From Escherichia coli (GTDB lineage: Bacteria > Pseudomonadota > Gammaproteobacteria > Enterobacterales > Enterobacteriaceae): a stretch of 64,000 nt of DNA. Below, piece after piece: positions 4,157 through 56,802 of this stretch (the stretch's first letter is position 1; every line of letters begins with the position of its first letter). The stretch lies in NCBI RefSeq assembly GCF_003018255.1, contig NZ_CP027440.1; one strand, given 5' to 3'. A program made the position numbers and the translations under genes. Below the pieces are notes generated by a model. The model searched no databases. It saw only the letters and a list, made by a program, of their open reading frames with translations, and was not told where the DNA came from.

Positions 4157-4593
4157 TTCGGGAAGTGCAACATTCAGAACTCCCCGCGATCCTCGAACTG
4201 TGGCTGGAAAGTACAACCTGGGGGCATTCCTTTATAAAATCGAGTTACTGGCGTGACTGCATTCCGCTGGTGCGCGATGCGTATCTTGCCAACGCGCAAA
4301 ACTGGGTCTGGGAAGAAGACGGTAAGCTTCTCGGTTTTGTCAGCATTATGGAAGGCCGATTTCTGGCTGCAATGTTTGTCGCACCGAAGGCCGTCAGACG
4401 CGGTATTGGTAAGGCGCTAATGCAGTATGTGCAGCAGCGCCATCCCCATCTGATGCTGGAGGTTTATCAAAAAAATCAACCGGCGATAGATTTTTACCAG
4501 GCGCAGGGTTTTCACATTGTCGACTGCGCATGGCAGGATGAAACCCAACTACCCACCTGGATTATGAGCTGGCCGGTGGTTCAAACGCTGTAA
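4153..4593 (+). CDS. yiaC: GNAT-family N-acetyltransferase YiaC
   Basis: 146-aa ORF; ATG overlaps tag stop (ATGA); acetyl-CoA-binding-like RRGIGKAL motif. Confidence 0.88.
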
Positions 4594-31745: not shown

Positions 31746-32744
31746 ATGAAAGTGACATTTGAGCAGTTAAAAGCAGCCTTTAATCGAGTCTTAATTTCAC
31801 GCGACGTTGACAGCGAAACGGCTGATGCCTGTGCCGAAATGTTCGCCCGCACCACCGAATCCGGCGTTTATTCTCACGGCGTCAACCGTTTCCCTCGTTT
31901 CATTCAACAACTGGAAAACGGAGATATCATTCCTGATGCCCAACCCAAACGTATAACCAGCCTCGGCGCAATTGAACAGTGGGACGCCCAGCGTTCGATC
32001 GGTAACCTGACAGCGAAAAAGATGATGGATCGCGCCATTGAACTGGCTGCCGATCACGGTATTGGTCTGGTGGCACTACGTAATGCCAACCACTGGATGC
32101 GCGGCGGCAGCTACGGCTGGCAGGCGGCGGAAAAAGGCTATATTGGCATTTGCTGGACCAACTCCATCGCCGTAATGCCGCCGTGGGGCGCAAAAGAGTG
32201 TCGCATCGGCACTAACCCGCTGATCGTCGCCATTCCTTCTACCCCAATCACCATGGTCGATATGTCGATGTCGATGTTCTCTTACGGCATGTTAGAAGTT
32301 AACCGTCTGGCAGGCCGTCAGCTCCCGGTCGATGGTGGCTTTGATGATGAGGGCAATTTGACCAAAGAACCTGGCGTTATCGAGAAGAATCGCCGCATTT
32401 TGCCGATGGGTTACTGGAAAGGTTCGGGCATGTCGATTGTGCTGGATATGATCGCCACTCTCCTTTCTGACGGCGCATCGGTTGCCGAAGTCACCCAGGA
32501 CAACAGCGACGAATACGGCATTTCACAAATTTTTATTGCCATTGAAGTAGATAAGCTTATCGACGGCCCCACCCGCGATGCCAAACTGCAACGCATCATG
32601 GATTACGTTACCACCGCTGAACGCGCTGACGAAAATCAGGCCATTCGCTTACCCGGCCACGAATTTACTACCCTGCTGGCCGAAAACCGCCGTAACGGTA
32701 TTACCGTTGATGACAGCGTGTGGGCAAAAATCCAAGCGTTATAA
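31746..32744 (+). CDS. yiaK: 2,3-diketo-L-gulonate reductase
   Basis: 332-aa [25 protein letters not shown]...; first gene of yiaK-sgbE operon. Confidence 0.93.
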
Positions 32745-35106: not shown

Positions 35107-36093
35107 ATGAAATTACGCTCTGTAACCTACGCATTATTCATTGCTGGCCTGGCTGCATTTAGTACATCTTCACTGGCGGCGCAATCTTTACGTTTCGGTT
35201 ATGAAACCTCACAAACCGACTCGCAACATATTGCGGCGAAAAAATTCAATGATTTATTGCAGGAGAGAACCAAAGGCGAGCTGAAATTAAAACTGTTCCC
35301 GGACAGTACTCTCGGTAACGCACAGGCGATGATCAGCGGCGTACGTGGCGGCACCATCGATATGGAAATGTCCGGCTCGAATAACTTTGCCGGGTTATCA
35401 CCAGTGATGAACTTGCTTGATGTCCCTTTCCTGTTCCGCGATACCGCTCACGCGCATAAAACGCTCGACGGCAAAGTCGGTGATGATCTGAAAGCCTCAC
35501 TTGAAGGTAAAGGACTAAAAGTACTGGCCTACTGGGAAAACGGCTGGCGCGATGTCACCAACTCGCGCGCACCGGTTAAAACCCCCGCCGACCTGAAAGG
35601 GCTGAAAATTCGCACCAACAATAGCCCGATGAATATCGCCGCATTCAAAGTCTTTGGCGCTAACCCGATCCCGATGCCGTTTGCCGAAGTCTATACCGGG
35701 CTGGAAACGCGCACTATCGACGCTCAGGAACACCCGATCAACGTCGTCTGGTCAGCAAAATTTTTCGAAGTACAGAAGTACCTTTCTCTGACGCACCACG
35801 CCTATTCGCCACTTCTGGTGGTGATCAACAAAGCGAAGTTTGATGGCTTAAGCCCGGAGTTCCAGCAGGCGCTAGTTTCATCTGCACAGGAAGCGGGTAA
35901 CTACCAGCGCAAACTGGTTGCCGAAGATCAGCAAAAAATCATCGACGGCATGAAAGAAGTGGGCGTGGAAGTCATCACCGATCTCGACCGCAAAGCCTTT
36001 AGCGACGCACTGGGTACTCAGGTCCGCGACATGTTTGTTAAAGATGTTCCGCAGGGCGCTGAGCTGCTGAAAGCCGTGGATGAGGTGCAATAA
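35107..36093 (+). CDS. yiaO: TRAP transporter periplasmic solute-binding protein
   Basis: 328-aa ORF with signal peptide; DctP-like. Confidence 0.92.
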   Translation: MKLRSVTYALFIAGLAAFSTSSLAAQSLRFGYETSQTDSQHIAAKKFNDLLQERTKGELKLKLFPDSTLGNAQAMISGVRGGTIDMEMSGSNNFAGLSPVMNLLDVPFLFRDTAHAHKTLDGKVGDDLKASLEGKGLKVLAYWENGWRDVTNSRAPVKTPADLKGLKIRTNNSPMNIAAFKVFGANPIPMPFAEVYTGLETRTIDAQEHPINVVWSAKFFEVQKYLSLTHHAYSPLLVVINKAKFDGLSPEFQQALVSSAQEAGNYQRKLVAEDQQKIIDGMKEVGVEVITDLDRKAFSDALGTQVRDMFVKDVPQGAELLKAVDEVQ

Positions 36094-36096
36094 ACC

Positions 36097-37593
36097 ATGA
36101 CGCAATACTGGCTGGGGTTAGATTGTGGCGGTAGCTGGCTGAAAGCCGGGCTGTATGACCGCGAAGGCCGGGAGGCAGGCGTGCAGCGCCTGCCGCTGTG
36201 CGCATTAAGCCCGCAGCCAGGTTGGGCAGAGCGCGATATGGCAGAACTGTGGCAATGCTGCATGGCTGTCATTCGCGCCCTGCTTACTCATTCTGGTGTT
36301 AGCGGGGAACAAATTGTCGGTATCGGCATCTCCGCACAGGGAAAGGGCTTGTTTTTGCTGGATAAAAACGACAAGCCGCTCGGTAACGCCATTTTGTCCT
36401 CGGATCGCCGGGCGATGGAAATCGTTCGTCGCTGGCAGGAAGATGGCATCCCGGAAAAACTCTACCCGCTGACGCGACAAACCTTGTGGACCGGGCATCC
36501 GGTGTCGCTGTTACGCTGGCTGAAAGAGCACGAACCGGAACGCTACGCGCAAATTGGCTGCGTGATGATGACGCACGACTACCTGCGCTGGTGTTTAACC
36601 GGCGTCAAAGGTTGCGAAGAGAGCAATATTTCTGAGTCCAATCTCTACAACATGAGTCTTGGGGAATATGACCCGTGCCTCACCGACTGGCTGGGGATCG
36701 CTGAAATCAACCACGCCCTGCCACTTGTTGTCGGATCTGCCGAAATCTGCGGGGAGATCACCGCTCAGACAGCCGCACTGACCGGTCTGAAAGCGGGTAC
36801 GCCCGTTGTCGGCGGCCTGTTTGATGTGGTTTCCACCGCACTCTGCGCCGGGATCGAAGACGAATTTACCCTCAATGCGGTGATGGGCACCTGGGCGGTG
36901 ACCAGCGGCATAACCCGTGGTTTACGTGACGGTGAAGCGCATCCGTATGTCTATGGTCGCTACGTTAACGATGGTCAATTTATCGTTCATGAAGCAAGCC
37001 CCACCTCTTCCGGCAATCTCGAATGGTTTACCACACAGTGGGGAGAAATCTCGTTTGATGAGATCAACCAGGCCGTTGCCAGCTTGCCGAAGGCCGGGGG
37101 CGATCTCTTTTTCCTGCCGTTCCTGTACGGCAGCAACGCTGGACTCGAGATGACCAGCGGTTTCTACGGGATGCAGGCCATTCACACCCGCGTACACCTG
37201 TTGCAGGCCATTTATGAAGGCGTGGTGTTCAGCCATATGACCCATCTCAACCGGATGCGCGAACGTTTTACTGATGTGCACACCCTGCGCGTCACTGGCG
37301 GTCCGGCGCACTCCGATGTCTGGATGCAAATGCTGGCGGACGTCAGCGGTCTGCGTATCGAGCTGCCGCAGGTGGAAGAAACCGGCTGCTTTGGTGCGGC
37401 ACTTGCCGCCCGCGTCGGCACCGGAGTTTATCGCGATTTCAGCGAAGCCCAACGTGATTTACAGCACCCGGTACGCACCCTGCTGCCGGATATGACCGCC
37501 CATCAGCTTTACCAACAAAAATACCAACGTTATCAGCATCTCATTGCCGCACTTCAGGGCTTTCACGCCCGCATCAAGGAGCACACATTATGA
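36097..37593 (+). CDS. lyxK: L-xylulose/3-keto-L-gulonate kinase
   Basis: 498-aa FGGY-family kinase ORF. Confidence 0.93.
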   Translation: MTQYWLGLDCGGSWLKAGLYDREGREAGVQRLPLCALSPQPGWAERDMAELWQCCMAVIRALLTHSGVSGEQIVGIGISAQGKGLFLLDKNDKPLGNAILSSDRRAMEIVRRWQEDGIPEKLYPLTRQTLWTGHPVSLLRWLKEHEPERYAQIGCVMMTHDYLRWCLTGVKGCEESNISESNLYNMSLGEYDPCLTDWLGIAEINHALPLVVGSAEICGEITAQTAALTGLKAGTPVVGGLFDVVSTALCAGIEDEFTLNAVMGTWAVTSGITRGLRDGEAHPYVYGRYVNDGQFIVHEASPTSSGNLEWFTTQWGEISFDEINQAVASLPKAGGDLFFLPFLYGSNAGLEMTSGFYGMQAIHTRVHLLQAIYEGVVFSHMTHLNRMRERFTDVHTLRVTGGPAHSDVWMQMLADVSGLRIELPQVEETGCFGAALAARVGTGVYRDFSEAQRDLQHPVRTLLPDMTAHQLYQQKYQRYQHLIAALQGFHARIKEHTL

Positions 37594-38252
37594 GCCGACC
37601 ACTTCTGCAACTGGCCCTCGACCACTCATCACTTGAAGACGCACAGCGCGACGTGACGCTGTTAAAAGACAGCGTCGATATCGTCGAAGCGGGCACCATT
37701 CTCTGTTTAAACGAAGGGCTTGGCGCAGTGAAAGCCTTGCGCGAACAGTGCCCGAACAAAATCATCGTCGCTGACTGGAAGGTCGCCGATGCCGGTGAAA
37801 CGCTCGCGCAACAGGCGTTTGGCGCAGGCGCTAACTGGATGACCATCATCTGCGCCGCACCGCTCGCGACGGTGGAAAAAGGCCACGCGATGGCGCAACG
37901 CTGCGGTGGTGAAATTCAGATCGAGTTGTTCGGTAACTGGACGCTGGACGACGCCCGCGACTGGCATCGTATTGGCGTGCGGCAGGCCATTTATCATCGC
38001 GGTCGCGACGCGCAGGCCAGCGGGCAACAGTGGGGCGAGGCCGATCTGGCACGCATGAAGGCGCTTTCCGATATCGGCCTTGAGCTTTCCATTACCGGCG
38101 GGATTACCCCTGCTGACCTGCCGCTGTTTAAAGATATTCGCGTGAAAGCGTTTATTGCCGGGCGAGCACTGGCAGGCGCAGCAAATCCGGTGCAGGTGGC
38201 TGGCGATTTCCATGCACAAATTGATGCCATCTGGGGAGGTGCGCGCGCGTAA
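37590..38252 (+). CDS. sgbH: 3-keto-L-gulonate-6-phosphate decarboxylase
   Basis: 220-aa [25 protein letters not shown]...; start overlaps lyxK stop. Confidence 0.93.
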
Positions 38253-39105
38253 TCATCCGTTAGGGATTTATGAAAAAGCGCTGGCGAAAGATCTCTCCTG
38301 GCCGGAGCGGCTGGTGCTGGCAAAAAGCTGTGGCTTTGATTTTGTCGAAATGTCGGTGGATGAAACCGACGAACGGCTCTCACGTCTTGACTGGAGCGCC
38401 GCACAACGTGCTTCGCTGGTCACTGCGATGATCGAAACGGGTGTTGGGATCCCGTCGATGTGCCTGTCCGCACATCGTCGCTTTCCTTTTGGTAGCCGTG
38501 ACGAGGCAGTGCGCGAACGGGCGCGGGAAATCATGAGTAAAGCGATTCGCCTGGCGCGCGATCTCGGCATTCGCACCATCCAGCTGGCGGGCTACGACGT
38601 CTATTACGAAGACCACGACGAAGGCACCCGGCAACGTTTTGCTGAAGGGCTGGCGTGGACAGTCGAACAGGCGGCGGCATCACAAGTAATGCTGGCGGTG
38701 GAGATTATGGATACTGCGTTTATGAACTCCATCAGCAAATGGAAAAAGTGGGACGAGATGCTCGCCTCGCCGTGGTTCACCGTCTACCCGGACGTCGGCA
38801 ACCTCAGCGCCTGGGGCAATGATGTTCCCGCCGAACTGAAACTGGGCATTGACCGTATCGCCGCGATCCACCTGAAAGATACTCAACCAGTCACCGAGCA
38901 AAGCCCCGGACAGTTCCGTGATGTGCCGTTTGGCGAAGGCTGCGTCGATTTCGTTGGCATCTTCAAAACGCTGCATGAACTGAACTATCGCGGTTCTTTC
39001 CTGATTGAGATGTGGACCGAAAAAGCCAAAGAGCCGGTGCTGGAGATTATTCAGGCGCGGCGCTGGATTGAAGCGCGTATGCAGGAGGCAGGTTTTATAT
39101 GTTAG
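38239..39105 (+). CDS. sgbU: L-ribulose-5-phosphate 3-epimerase (start codon uncertain)
   Basis: ORF frame opens at 38155 inside sgbH; conserved sequence begins ...[22 protein letters not shown]. Candidate starts are GTG 38239 or ATG 38224. Confidence 0.75.
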
Positions 39106-39794
39106 AGCAACTGAAAGCCGACGTGCTGGCGGCAAATCTGGCACTTCCCGCTCACCATCTGGTGACGTTCACCTGGGGCAATGTCAGCGCGGTAGACGAA
39201 GCGCGGCAATGGATGGTAATCAAACCTTCCGGCGTCGAGTACGACGTGATGACCGCCGACGATATGGTGGTGGTTGAGATAGCCAGCGGTAAGGTGGTGG
39301 AAGGCAGCAAAAAGCCCTCGTCCGACACGCCAACGCATCTGGCGCTTTACCGTCGCTATGCCGAAATCGGTGGCATTGTGCATACCCACTCGCGCCACGC
39401 CACCATCTGGTCGCAGGCCGGGCTGGATCTCCCCGCCTGGGGCACCACGCACGCCGATTATTTCTATGGTGCCATCCCCTGCACGCGACAGATGACCGCA
39501 GAGGAGATTAACGGCGAATATGAATATCAGACCGGCGAAGTGATCATTGAAACTTTCGAAGAACGCGGCAGGAGTCCGGCACAAATCCCGGCGGTGCTGG
39601 TGCATTCTCACGGCCCGTTCGCCTGGGGAAAAAATGCCGCCGATGCGGTGCATAATGCCGTAGTGCTGGAAGAGTGCGCCTATATGGGCCTGTTCTCGCG
39701 CCAGCTTGCGCCGCAGCTCCCTGCGATGCAAAACGAACTGTTAGATAAGCACTACCTGCGTAAGCATGGGGCCAATGCCTATTACGGGCAGTAA
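39099..39794 (+). CDS. sgbE: L-ribulose-5-phosphate 4-epimerase
   Basis: 231-aa [36 protein letters not shown] (AraD-like). Confidence 0.94.
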
Positions 39795-39825: not shown

Positions 39826-40641
39826 CTACGAATTGATATGTTCCTTGCTGTAACGTCGCTTCCACGCAGCTGGCGTTAAACCGGTGTGTTTGCGAAAAAT
39901 CTGTCGGAAATAGCCAACGTCATTAAACCCGCACAACGCAGCCACTTCAGTGAGCGATCGCGCTTCGCTAATTAACAGCTTTTCGGCTTCGCGCACTCGC
40001 TGGCGATGAATTGCTTCTGTTAACGTCAGATGAAACACCCGCCGGTAGACGCGCCCAAGATAATCGGCATTGCAGTACAGCTCGCGGGCTAAAAGCGCCG
40101 TAGAAAGCGGGCGATGATATTGCGTGCGAATCAGTTTCTGCGCTTTCCAGGCAAGCGTGGTACCTGCGGCATCGGCCTGTTCATCAAGACGCGCGTCACG
40201 GGTGAGCTGCTGCAAAATCAGCAGCACAATAAACTCCAGCGCCGGAGTGCGTTGATGCTTTTCCTGTTCGCTTAAGAACTGGCGAAACAGGGCCACCAGC
40301 GCCTGCGGATCGGCAACCTTCGTTTGTTGCGGCACGCTAAGATGAGTGAGCCAGCGCGGGTCGCTATCCGGCGCTTTAACCTCAAAATGCAGCCAGTAAA
40401 ATTTGAGATCGGCGGGAAAATCCTCTACCCCAACATGCTGTCGGTTCGGCCAGAGTAATAAACTCTCTCCCGCATCGACCAGAAATATCCGCTCTTCTTC
40501 CTGAATCGTTAATCGACCTTTTTCGACAAAGATAATTTCCCATGACTCCAGCCGCCTTGCCGGGTGCCTCCCTACGCCACGGGAAATAAATAATCCACCA
40601 TTTTGCACTTTAATCGGTAACGTCATGGATAATTCGAGCAT
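39826..40641 (-). CDS. AraC/XylS-family transcriptional regulator (accessory; absent from K-12 at this position)
   Basis: 271-aa ORF; cupin-like N domain and C-terminal AraC HTH (...EVAALCGFNDVGYFRQIFRKHTGLTPAAWKRR); alternative start MTLPIK at 40626. Confidence 0.8.
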   Translation of the reverse strand: MLELSMTLPIKVQNGGLFISRGVGRHPARRLESWEIIFVEKGRLTIQEEERIFLVDAGESLLLWPNRQHVGVEDFPADLKFYWLHFEVKAPDSDPRWLTHLSVPQQTKVADPQALVALFRQFLSEQEKHQRTPALEFIVLLILQQLTRDARLDEQADAAGTTLAWKAQKLIRTQYHRPLSTALLARELYCNADYLGRVYRRVFHLTLTEAIHRQRVREAEKLLISEARSLTEVAALCGFNDVGYFRQIFRKHTGLTPAAWKRRYSKEHINS

Positions 40642-40866
40642 TGATATGTAATTTCCCGCTTATTCATTAATGATTAAACACATTACCTTTTGATTATTAA
40701 TCAAAAACATTAATTTCACCTGATCCATTTCACACTTTTAAATTCAGGTCGGAATCGTCACCTTTTTTTACTCTTTTCTCGCCTTGTTGATATTCCCGTT
40801 CACGGCAGAATTAATCAGGTCATTGCAATAAAACTAAAAATTGCTCCCTATTCACGAGGAATATCT
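40642..40866. promoter_or_regulatory. Divergent promoter region of the accessory cassette, containing palindrome TTGATTA-T-TAATCAA
   Basis: AT-rich 225-bp intergenic region; 15-bp inverted repeat at about 40700-40714. Confidence 0.4.
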
Positions 40867-42267
40867 ATGACCTCTACACCGATTACTGCCGCTGATATCG
40901 CTAAAGGTAAAATTGACGATGCGTTATCTGTACGGGAAAAAATAGGCTACGGCCTGGGTGACGCAGGCGGCACCGTAATAACTTGCCTGATCATGAACTT
41001 TCTCACCTTTTTCTACACCGACGTTTTTGGCTTAACTCCGGCGCTGGTCGGCACGCTGTTTATTGCACTGCGCGTGTTTGATGCCATCTCCGACCCGGTG
41101 ATGGGCGTCATTGCCGACCGGACGCAAAGTCGCTGGGGGCGCTTTCGTCCGTGGCAGTTATGGATTGCCATTCCCATCGGCATTATCGGCATCCTGACGT
41201 TCACCGTGCCAGATGCCAGCATGGGAGTAAAAATCGCCTGGGCGTTCGGTACTTACCTGCTCCTTTCAGTCGGTTATACCGCCATCAACGTACCGTACTG
41301 CGCGCTGATCAACACCATGACCACCCGCCACAATGAAGTGATCTCCTGCCAGTCCTGGCGATTCGTTCTCTGCGGCGTAGCGGGATTTCTGGTTTCGGTT
41401 GGCCTGCCGTGGATGGTGGATCTCTTCGGTCAGGGTAATGCCGCGCGCGGCTATCAACTGGGCGTCGGCGTGCTGTGCGCCATTGCCGTGGTGATGTTCC
41501 TGTGCTGTTTCTTCTGGGTTCGTGAACGGGTGCCACTCTCCACAATGGGGAAATTTACCCTGCGCGAACATCTTGCCGGGCTGCGGAACAACGACCAACT
41601 GCTGCTGATGCTGGTCATGTCTTTCCTGCTGATTAACGTCTTTAATATTCGCGGCGGTGGGTATATGTACTTCATTACCTACGTCTTACAAGGCAGTACG
41701 GGCTACACGTCGCTGTTCTTCACCATGGTCACCTTCGCCTCCATTATCGGCTCGGTGATTGTCAGCCCGTTAACGCGGCGTTTCGATACCGTCAAAATTT
41801 ACTACTACACCAACCTGCTCCTCGCTGCGCTGGCGGTGTTGATGTGGTTCCTGCCTTCTGGCCCGGCTTATCAAACGCTGTGGCTGGCGGTGATCCTCGG
41901 TAATGGCGTGATTCTTGGCTTCACATTGCCACTGCACTTCTCATTGATGGCCTTTGCCGATGACTACGGCGAGTGGAAAACCCGCGTACGTTCTTCCGGC
42001 ATGAACTTCGCCTTCAATCTGTTTTTCATCAAGCTGGCATGGGCCTCCAGCGCCGGGATCATCAGCCTGCTGTTTATTTTTGTCGCCTACCAGCCAGGCG
42101 TGGAAAACCAGACCACCAGTTCGCTTGGCGGGATCACGGCGATGGAAACATTACTGCCTGCGCTATTCCACCTGCTGCTGGCAGGGGCGATCCGCTTTTG
42201 CAAACTCAATAACCCTATGATGTCACGCATTGCTAGCGACCTGCGTCAGCGTCATGTACAGCCTTAA
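40867..42267 (+). CDS. GPH-family glycoside/pentoside/hexuronide:cation symporter (MelB/YicJ-like)
   Basis: 466-aa 12-TM ORF with GPH signatures ([23 protein letters not shown]). Confidence 0.85.
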
Positions 42268-42277
42268 GGAGCACAAG

Positions 42278-44257
42278 ATGAACATTTCGGAAGTCGATCT
42301 GCATAAACTGACGGTCAGCGATCCGTTCCTCGGTCAGTACCAACAACTGGTCCGCGATGTGGTGATTCCTTATCAGTGGGACGCCTTGAACGATCGTATC
42401 CCAGAAGCGGAACCCAGCCATGCGATTGAAAACTTTCGCATTGCCGCAGGACTGCAAGACGGTGAATTTTACGGGATGGTGTTTCAGGACAGCGACGTCG
42501 CCAAATGGCTGGAAGCGGTAGCCTGGTCGCTGTGCCAGAAGCCGGATGCCGAACTGGAAAAAACCGCTGACGAGGTGATTGAACTGATCGCCTCCGCCCA
42601 GTGCGAAGATGGCTATCTCAATGCTTACTTTACGGTAAAAGCGCCCGAAGAACGCTGGAGCAATCTGGCGGAGTGTCATGAACTTTACTGCGCCGGTCAT
42701 CTGATTGAAGCCGGAGTCGCCTTCTTCCAGGCCACGGGAAAACGGCGCTTGCTGGAAGTGGTTTGCCGTCTGGCCGATCATATCGACAGCGTATTTGGTC
42801 CAGGTGAAAGTAAGTTACACGGTTATCCTGGTCACCCGGAAATTGAACTGGCACTAATGCGCCTGTATGAAGTGACCGAAGAGCCGCGCTACCTGGCGCT
42901 GACGAACTATTTTGTCGAACAGCGTGGTGCGCAACCGCACTATTACGACCAGGAATATGAAAAGCGCGGGCAGACCTCGCACTGGCACACCTACGGCCCG
43001 GCGTGGATGGTGAAAGATAAAGCCTACAGCCAAGCGCATTTGCCCATCGCACAGCAACAAACCGCCATCGGACATACAGTACGCTTTGTATATCTGATGA
43101 CTGGCGTCGCACATCTCGCGCGTTTAAGTCACGATGAAAGCAAGCGTCAGGATTGCCTGCGGCTGTGGAACAATATGGCCCAGCGTCAGTTATATATTAC
43201 CGGCGGCATTGGCTCACAAAGCAGCGGCGAAGCGTTCAGCAGCGATTACGATCTGCCGAATGACACGGTTTACGCCGAAAGTTGTGCTTCCATCGGCCTG
43301 ATGATGTTCGCCCGGCGAATGCTGGAAATGGAAGGCGACAGTCAATATGCCGATGTGATGGAGCGCGCACTGTACAACACTGTGCTCGGCGGCATGGCGC
43401 TGGATGGCAAACATTTCTTCTACGTTAATCCGCTGGAAGTGCATCCAAAAACGTTAAAATTCAACCATATCTACGATCACGTTAAGCCGATCCGCCAGCG
43501 TTGGTTTGGTTGCGCTTGTTGTCCGCCAAATATCGCCCGCGTGCTAACCTCGATTGGTCATTATCTCTACACGCCGCGTGAAGATGCGTTGTATATCAAC
43601 ATCTACGCAGGAAACAGCATGGAAGTGCCGGTAGAAAATGGCACGCTGCGTCTGCGGGTTAGCGGAAACTATCCGTGGCAGGAACAGGTGACAATTGCGG
43701 TTGAATCGCCCCAGCCGGTGCGTCATACGCTGGCTTTACGTCTGCCGGACTGGTGCACACAGCCGCAGATCATATTGAATGGGGAAGAGGTCGAGCAGGA
43801 TATTCGTAAAGGGTATTTGCACATTACCCGCGAATGGCAGGAGGGCGACACGCTGAATCTGACTTTGCCAATGCCGGTACGTCGCGTTTACGGTAACCCT
43901 CTGGTGCGTCACGTCGCCGGAAAAGTGGCGATTCAGCGCGGCCCGCTGGTGTATTGCCTGGAACAGGCCGACAACGGCGAGTCACTGCATAATCTGTGGC
44001 TGCCCGCCGATGCGCCATTTACGACATTTGAAGGTAAGGGATTGTTCCGCCATAAGATCTTAATCCAGGCACCGGGTTATCGGTATGAACAGAGCAATCC
44101 AGAGCAGCAACCGCTGTGGCATTACGACAGCGCGCCAGCCAAACGCCAGCCGCAAACCCTGACCTTTATCCCGTGGTTTAGCTGGGCCAACCGGGGTGAA
44201 GGCGAAATGCGGATCTGGGTGAATGAGGAAAAGCATTGCCATCCGGAGGTTGGATAA
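42278..44257 (+). CDS. Glycoside hydrolase family 127-like protein (DUF1680; putative beta-L-arabinofuranosidase)
   Basis: ORF frame from 42230; likely start MNISEVDLHK at 42278 after RBS AAGGA; contains WFGCACCPPN cysteine motif typical of HypBA1-like GH127. Confidence 0.75.
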   Translation: MNISEVDLHKLTVSDPFLGQYQQLVRDVVIPYQWDALNDRIPEAEPSHAIENFRIAAGLQDGEFYGMVFQDSDVAKWLEAVAWSLCQKPDAELEKTADEVIELIASAQCEDGYLNAYFTVKAPEERWSNLAECHELYCAGHLIEAGVAFFQATGKRRLLEVVCRLADHIDSVFGPGESKLHGYPGHPEIELALMRLYEVTEEPRYLALTNYFVEQRGAQPHYYDQEYEKRGQTSHWHTYGPAWMVKDKAYSQAHLPIAQQQTAIGHTVRFVYLMTGVAHLARLSHDESKRQDCLRLWNNMAQRQLYITGGIGSQSSGEAFSSDYDLPNDTVYAESCASIGLMMFARRMLEMEGDSQYADVMERALYNTVLGGMALDGKHFFYVNPLEVHPKTLKFNHIYDHVKPIRQRWFGCACCPPNIARVLTSIGHYLYTPREDALYINIYAGNSMEVPVENGTLRLRVSGNYPWQEQVTIAVESPQPVRHTLALRLPDWCTQPQIILNGEEVEQDIRKGYLHITREWQEGDTLNLTLPMPVRRVYGNPLVRHVAGKVAIQRGPLVYCLEQADNGESLHNLWLPADAPFTTFEGKGLFRHKILIQAPGYRYEQSNPEQQPLWHYDSAPAKRQPQTLTFIPWFSWANRGEGEMRIWVNEEKHCHPEVG

Positions 44258-56574: not shown

Positions 56575-56802
56575 GCCGAGTCCTTTGTGCGAGGAAAAAT
56601 ATCAGTATGGCCTGGTGATAGGAAAAAGGGCAGAAAATGTTGATGGTTTGTTACTTCCCAATAAATCACATATTTATCATGGTGATATAAATATTTTCCT
56701 AATTGTTCTTATCTGACAGATATCTCACTTAAGGCTTTCTTATAAATCTGTAGGGTTTCGCCTGTCAGCAGACAAATAACCCGATAAAACAAGGATGAGC
56801 AG

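Follow-up and report, generated by a model that had tools for sequence, protein, structure and literature searches.

A putative start-codon-loss allele of sgbU in the yiaK-S operon of Escherichia coli

The conserved start position of sgbU, at 38245 in the 64,000-nt stretch of E. coli DNA analyzed here (the window), reads GCG instead of GTG. The start of sgbU is ambiguous because this GTG-to-GCG change destroyed the conserved start codon, a cause that the initial annotation had missed. That annotation had described an ambiguous sgbU start inside the 3' end of sgbH and had read it as a sign of translational coupling; the ambiguity is real and the coupled junction is well supported, but what was taken as normal gene architecture is really a derived allele. 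Judged by comparison with orthologous loci, the window carries a predicted start-codon-loss allele of sgbU, in which the ancestral start has been mutated to a non-start codon, and comparative start-site evidence resolves the ambiguity cleanly. The explanation that we consider probable as a whole is that the window represents a sublineage bearing this allele, in which residual SgbU would start at an ill-positioned codon further upstream, most likely GTG at 38239.

Operon context and the canonical start of sgbU

The genes concerned form the distal end of the yiaK-S operon of E. coli, and the context yiaKLMNO-lyxK-sgbH-sgbU-sgbE is present according to the open reading frames (ORFs) and to the RefSeq annotation of near-identical genomes. 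All features discussed below are on the plus strand. The lyxK gene (36097-37593, from the ORF list) is joined to sgbH through a 4-nt ATGA overlap. sgbH (37590..38252, from the ORF list and the RefSeq annotation of near-identical genomes) encodes a 220-aa paralogue of 3-keto-L-gulonate-6-phosphate decarboxylase and is intact, ending at TAA 38250-38252. The sgbU coding region as bounded in other E. coli spans 38245..39105 (286 codons, on the basis of TIGR00542, the UlaE structure 3cqh and a near-identical genome) and is otherwise intact. It is followed by sgbE (39099..39794, from the ORF list), encoding L-ribulose-5-phosphate 4-epimerase, whose ATG is preceded by AGGAGG and lies in a 7-nt overlap with the sgbU stop. 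The lyxK-sgbH and sgbU-sgbE junctions are thus in the same style as sgbH-sgbU, and the remaining operon ORFs and the repressor gene yiaJ are all intact. Poor translation of sgbU could potentially have a polar effect on sgbE. The PGAP/RefSeq labels in this region follow the paralogues, with sgbH named 'ulaD' (37590-38252) and sgbE named 'araD' (39099-39794), and such names could misdirect automated pathway calls for the yiaK-S operon. Antisense ORFs are also listed across the junction; GC-rich coding sequence ordinarily produces such ORFs as a mechanical by-product.

SgbU scores 519.6 bits against NCBIfam TIGR00542 (cutoff 272.15), covering profile positions 1-279 of 279, and matches the UlaE structure 3cqh with E = 4e-108. 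These matches assign the predicted product of the sgbU frame to the L-ribulose-5-phosphate 3-epimerase family (SgbU/UlaE). From this assignment and the K-12 literature, its predicted activity is the conversion of L-xylulose-5-P to L-ribulose-5-P (PMC6237786). The conserved protein begins where the initial annotation had placed it, as the R of RNHPL is both position 1 of TIGR00542 and the start of the alignment with UlaE (3cqh). The family has a start codon at the conserved M-R-x-H-P-L, and in the window GCG occupies this place at 38245. By sequence, the coding region therefore appears to belong to the family while its expression signal appears defective. At the junction, RNA folding showed nothing unusual (z-score 0.48), and no Rfam family matched at E <= 1.

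The position of the canonical start at 38245..38247 can be derived independently of annotation. In six E. coli genomes, two of them almost identical to the window over 57 kb, the RefSeq start of sgbU is the homologue of 38245 and is GTG in all six. The ancestral context in these genomes is GGGGAGGTGCGC-GTG-CGTAA, with the GTG located 5 nt after GGAGG and an 8-nt overlap (GTGCGTAA) up to the end of the sgbH stop. All other Escherichia examined also have GTG at this position. We then compared 80 orthologous loci from ~30 genera, inspecting the DNA directly and using homology to set the sgbH frame. At the codon aligned to 38245, 71/80 have ATG and 5/80 have GTG; in the other four loci (three Pantoea, one Hafnia) an ATG lies 1-4 codons upstream of the equivalent position. 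Starts aligned to 38239, 38224 and 38212 are sporadic across taxa and are by-products of sgbH codons. The distance from the sgbH stop to the sgbU start is -8 (21 loci), -4 (6), -1 (15), +1 (13), +2 (24) or +4 nt (1). At the 38 loci where the sgbH stop precedes the sgbU ATG (+1 to +4 nt), the upstream sgbU frame is closed, so that no other start is possible there.

The Shine-Dalgarno (SD) sequence gives the same position. A predicted SD, GGGGAGGTG at 38233..38241, is embedded in the sgbH codons for W-G-G, forms a duplex of -11.8 to -12.6 kcal/mol with the 16S 3' end, and is spaced for 38245 and not for the fallback codons. Within it, GGGGAGGUG is the sole strong SD (about -12 kcal/mol). A TGGGG(A)G motif recurs at this site in almost all of the 80 orthologous junctions, as a GGGGAG-type SD in the last sgbH codons. 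Cross-species DNA, the alignment starts of TIGR00542 and UlaE, and the SD spacing together make 38245 firmly established, at the level of sequence comparison, as the predicted canonical start. Tight coupling of the sgbH-sgbU junction is likewise a well-supported prediction from the distances in the 80 species and the SD at the sgbH end.

The sgbU frame extends upstream of this position. It had been described as open for about 100 nt within sgbH, and we measured 107 nt, from 38146 (past TGA 38143-38145) to the sgbH stop TAA. GTG 38239 and ATG 38224 do lie in this frame and overlap sgbH, as proposed, but they are not its only starts: the open stretch holds five in-frame start codons, namely TTG 38155, ATG 38212, TTG 38221, ATG 38224 and GTG 38239. 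For ~35 codons, ~1.6 ATG/GTG/TTG would be expected against the five seen, and several of these are dictated by sgbH codons; an open upstream stretch with a few start-like codons is not beyond chance. In the orthologue alignment, neither GTG 38239 nor ATG 38224 is the conserved start, each being missing from several other Escherichia alleles, and coupling to either would require an overlap of 14 or 29 nt, found in 0/80 species. A start downstream of the sgbH stop, which would have spoken against the initial annotation, was also looked for and none was usable. The next in-frame ATG/GTG/TTG past the stop is GTG 38314, which we rejected since it would delete the conserved N-terminal strand (PLGIYEKAL...).

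The T>C change at 38246

The loss of the start codon traces to a derived T>C SNP at 38246, for which the ancestral and derived states were set from 10 other Escherichia sequences. The change is silent in sgbH (CGT>CGC, Arg219) and turns sgbU codon 1 from GTG into GCG. It is the sole difference from strains JNE23-011 and JNE112863 over 36097-39794 (3.7 kb, lyxK to sgbE); just 12 SNPs, this one included, occur over the first 56.8 kb of the window.

The GCG allele is real. A 293-aa protein (from ATG 38224) has exact matches in 49 contigs with NCBI accessions and a 297-aa protein (from ATG 38212) in 19 contigs, and both carry the diagnostic Ala encoded by GCG. The allele is identical at the DNA level in independent assemblies, about 48 from NCBI and about 20 from Logan. 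We fetched five contigs from different samples (NCBI and Logan); GCG was present in 5/5, and three of them match the window without a difference over 6.9 kb, including its other private SNP at 35960. The allele is also rare, derived and confined to a single clone. A 90-nt query had no exact match among 5,426 complete RefSeq E. coli genomes, of which 4,833 contain the locus, and the best hit had one mismatch. A search of four other allele backgrounds of E. coli for the same T>C, covering GTG>GCG only and needing an exact protein match, found no case.

Other differences separate the window from JNE23-011, the nearest complete genome. They lie at 4228, 28229 and 35960, also at 31922 and 43033, and at six intergenic sites, and comprise yiaC P26S, malS D573G and yiaO A285V together with two synonymous SNPs and the six intergenic ones; the other GCG-allele assemblies that cover the yiaO site have the yiaO change too. 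Two of the GCG contigs (GCA_005046355.1 and SRR7947255) switch, upstream of window position 38069, to the reverse complement of window 37684-37748. The switch point is an 8-bp palindrome, CGATATCG, present in sgbH at both 37676-37683 and 38069-38076, and lies 22-65 nt from the contig end. Either an artefact (a foldback or an assembly tip) or a 385-bp inversion within sgbH would account for the switch.

Residual initiation on the GCG allele

Since 38245 is no longer a start codon, SgbU would have to come from a poorly placed upstream codon. The T>C at 38246, silent in sgbH, converted the conserved GTG start to GCG with the rest of the operon left intact. In the explanation that we favor, the intact SD would still set ribosomes over 38245, now devoid of a start codon. 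GTG 38239 would be used either through reinitiation by ribosomes ending sgbH at TAA 38250-38252 or by weak de novo initiation. This would yield an SgbU extended by two residues at its N-terminus (MRA-RNHPL...), probably made far below the ancestral level.

Three upstream codons were compared as residual starts. The GTG at 38239..38241, two codons upstream of the lost start, would give a 288-aa product (MRARNHPL...) and overlaps sgbH by 14 nt; it also overlaps the SD, its first base being a base of the GGAGG core (spacer 0), and it is missing from Escherichia alleles L003, L004 and L014-L017. An exact-protein look-up found the 288-aa protein absent from databases. The ATG at 38224..38226, picked by the NCBI annotation pipeline (PGAP) for a 293-aa protein, has a 29-nt overlap with sgbH and no SD (+0.3 kcal/mol), and is absent from K-12-type and SCAID-type alleles. 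The ATG at 38212..38214, picked by the Logan gene caller for a 297-aa protein, has a 41-nt overlap and a weak AGGTGG SD 11-12 nt upstream. In a simplified thermodynamic model, which is crude, ignores coupling and has no GCG parameter, so that its GCG value is meaningless, de novo initiation relative to the ancestral site was ~1% for GTG 38239, 0.01% for ATG 38224 and 0.04% for ATG 38212.

Proximity to the sgbH stop gives the same ranking of GTG over the ATGs, as GTG 38239 is the nearest start (14-nt overlap, vs 29 and 41 nt). Reinitiation after termination in E. coli is local, falls steeply with distance and is usually SD-dependent (PMC10666635, PMC6728339), and earlier phage work indicates that the start nearest the stop is used (cited in PMC10666635). 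The -14 distance in the window is just outside the range (about -8 to +10 nt) taken by Huber et al. as predictive of coupling. Published initiation profiling is also informative on the homologous K-12 codon. In cell-free INRI-seq, K-12 sgbU has a peak assigned to 'GTG -6 in_frame', the homologue of 38239, at 35.7 CPM in 2 of 5 replicates, measured in vitro on a synthetic transcriptome fragment with a 30-nt leader and without sgbH translation (PMC9825163). A second peak, in Supplementary Table S3, is an out-of-frame CTG at -14 (37 CPM, 3 replicates) (PMC9825163); the window counterparts of the two peaks span 38231-38241. The -6 peak shows that this codon can capture initiating ribosomes in vitro. 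In vivo Ribo-RET gave no sgbU signal (PMC9825163), as expected for a repressed operon. The TRAINSPOTTER N-terminomics supplement has no sgbU or sgbH entry, and a literature search on sgbU returned nothing on its start codon.

The model, the stop proximity and the K-12 INRI-seq peak point to GTG 38239 as the most probable residual start, with the database choices ATG 38224 and ATG 38212 being less likely, and SgbU output from the GCG allele is probably much reduced. Most likely the allele is a hypomorph, either neutral or mildly deleterious, of a gene in an accessory L-xylulose/L-ascorbate branch that is kept repressed. As the operon is YiaJ-repressed and encodes an accessory L-ascorbate/L-xylulose pathway (PMC6237786), a hypomorphic sgbU would rarely be exposed to selection, which fits the persistence of the allele in dozens of isolates. 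Several observations weigh against this explanation. The K-12 -6 GTG peak could mean that the codon is a reasonably efficient start despite its overlap with the SD, and the allele may then have almost no effect on expression; ATGs further upstream were preferred by PGAP and by another gene caller; and persistence in dozens of isolates means that the allele is not strongly counter-selected.

The best-surviving alternative is a functionally neutral shift of the start, in which GTG 38239 is efficient, through reinitiation or de novo, and yields a near-normal 288-aa SgbU, so that loss of 38245 has little effect. It agrees with the assignment of the INRI-seq peak to the homologous codon, with the use of the start nearest the stop in the phage work and with retention of the allele in some 48 assemblies or more. 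In the crystallised UlaE chain, residue 15 aligns with the equivalent of SgbU Arg2, which suggests that extra N-terminal residues are tolerated. We nevertheless regard this shift as unlikely. The first base of GTG 38239 is shared with the GGAGG core, leaving no spacer, its modelled rate is about one hundredth of the ancestral one, and no species among the 80 has a 14-nt overlap. In addition, the absence of the -6 GTG from several Escherichia alleles means that it is not the selected start, and SD-dependent reinitiation would put the P site at 38245, not at 38239. We give similarly low credence to the bolder proposal that SgbU is still functional via reinitiation at GTG 38239, with its base shared with the SD core and its 14-nt sgbH overlap, or alternatively that the change is an adaptive down-tuning of sgbU that leaves sgbH untouched. 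If such reinitiation were true, it would be a natural demonstration of termination-reinitiation rescuing a gene that has lost its canonical start, in a geometry that de novo initiation should not tolerate.

That the database annotation is right, with SgbU beginning at ATG 38224 (293 aa) or ATG 38212 (297 aa) deep within sgbH, is improbable. NCBI and the Logan gene caller made these calls for the exact allele, ATG is the strongest start codon, and ATG 38224 is directly preceded by an A-rich tract (ACAAATTG) in a region that sgbH-translating ribosomes would keep unfolded. Against this stand the missing SD of ATG 38224 and the weak, distant one of ATG 38212, modelled rates of 0.01-0.04% of the ancestral site, and positions 26 and 38 nt upstream of the sgbH stop, beyond the local reinitiation range. 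Both ATGs are moreover by-products of the sgbH codons H-A and I-D-A and are sporadic in other taxa.

Unconventional decoding is a far more remote reading, in which SD-positioned ribosomes initiate on GCG itself or a +1 frameshift near the SD fuses SgbH to SgbU. The strong SD remains in place at an ideal distance from 38245, and non-cognate codons do initiate detectably; non-canonical codons reach 0.01-3% of AUG, but non-near-cognates are at the low end, about 0.01-0.2% (bioRxiv 10.1101/063800). The +1 frameshift was considered for the internal SD, since sgbU is in the +1 frame of sgbH and this SD is just upstream of the sgbH stop. The arrangement is loosely reminiscent of prfB. As read from the sequence, CGC-GCG-TAA offers no slippery codon for re-pairing of the P-site tRNA, and we rejected a programmed SgbH-SgbU frameshift for this reason; the junction also has neither a structured element nor an Rfam match. 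Finally, a sequencing or assembly error, with C at 38246 not real and a normal GTG start present, is effectively refuted by the identical allele in independent NCBI and Logan assemblies of different samples and by the linked 35960 SNP in three of them, even though the change lengthens an alternating GC run from GCGCGTGCG to GCGCGCGCG and the allele occurs in no complete RefSeq genome.

Known systems, significance and the wider window

The closest known counterpart is the K-12 sgbH-sgbU junction (yiaK-S, b3581/b3582, RefSeq), which has the same genes, order and frames, the GGGGAGG SD in the last sgbH codons, the TAA stop and the -6 GTG. It differs in having the GTG start with an 8-nt overlap, whereas the window has GCG in its place and an ATG at -21 that K-12 lacks. 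In terms of coupling at short overlaps (the -8, -4 and -1 nt classes; Huber et al. 2019, 2023, PMC6728339, PMC10666635), the ancestral junction is a classic -8 overlap whose SD is intragenic. The window is without the start of that overlap, and its fallback, with a 14-nt overlap and a start embedded in the SD, has a geometry outside those studies. The allele also resembles natural start-codon-loss alleles or incipient pseudogenes of E. coli accessory catabolic genes, likewise with one transition in an otherwise intact gene of a repressed, non-essential operon in one clone. Unlike these, the sgbU mutation is silent in the gene that overlaps sgbU from upstream, and some expression may be rescued by an in-frame GTG located two codons before the lost start. 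UlaE (PDB 3cqh), the paralogue from the ula operon, shares the enzyme family and fold and aligns from the SgbU Arg2 equivalent to the C-terminus; it belongs to another operon, outside the window, and serves here only to fix the start of the conserved protein.

The sgbU allele is thus an ordinary natural variant in a non-essential sugar operon and involves no new mechanism. Its components are already known, as the ancestral -8 junction is annotated in K-12 and the GCG SNP is in public databases under extended N-termini. Little is at stake physiologically, since yiaK-S is an accessory pathway under YiaJ repression (PMC6237786). The chief value is for annotation: the same DNA has three possible N-termini, of which those of the 293- and 297-aa proteins are in databases and that of the 288-aa protein is mechanistically likeliest, none of the three is the conserved one, and no record flags the mutated canonical start. 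The allele is also a small natural experiment, in which a mutation silent in one gene removes an overlapping downstream start while the SD and the coupling geometry remain intact, and it is a possible natural test of how far back terminating ribosomes reinitiate.

The surrounding sequence is variable in several places. The sgbH-sgbU allele (38000-38500) is a minority type: over 501 nt, only 76/4,833 complete E. coli genomes reach 99% identity or more, and most lie at 90-95%. Such divergence is unusually high for a core-like locus of E. coli and suggests long-standing allelic classes or recombination at the operon. Downstream of sgbE, 39826-44257 contains an intact AraC-family regulator, an MFS transporter and a GH127 glycoside hydrolase; in a K-12-type strain (L002, 3327-3501) only a truncated AraC pseudogene remnant is annotated there, and this contrast makes the small accessory cluster lineage-variable. 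From about 56800 to 64000 the window departs abruptly from JNE23-011: mismatches become dense, and the register is then lost. The JNE23-011 counterpart consists of an RHS repeat gene, which the annotation treats as a frameshifted pseudogene, and of immunity-like genes after it, and the region looks like a variable RHS toxin/immunity cassette.
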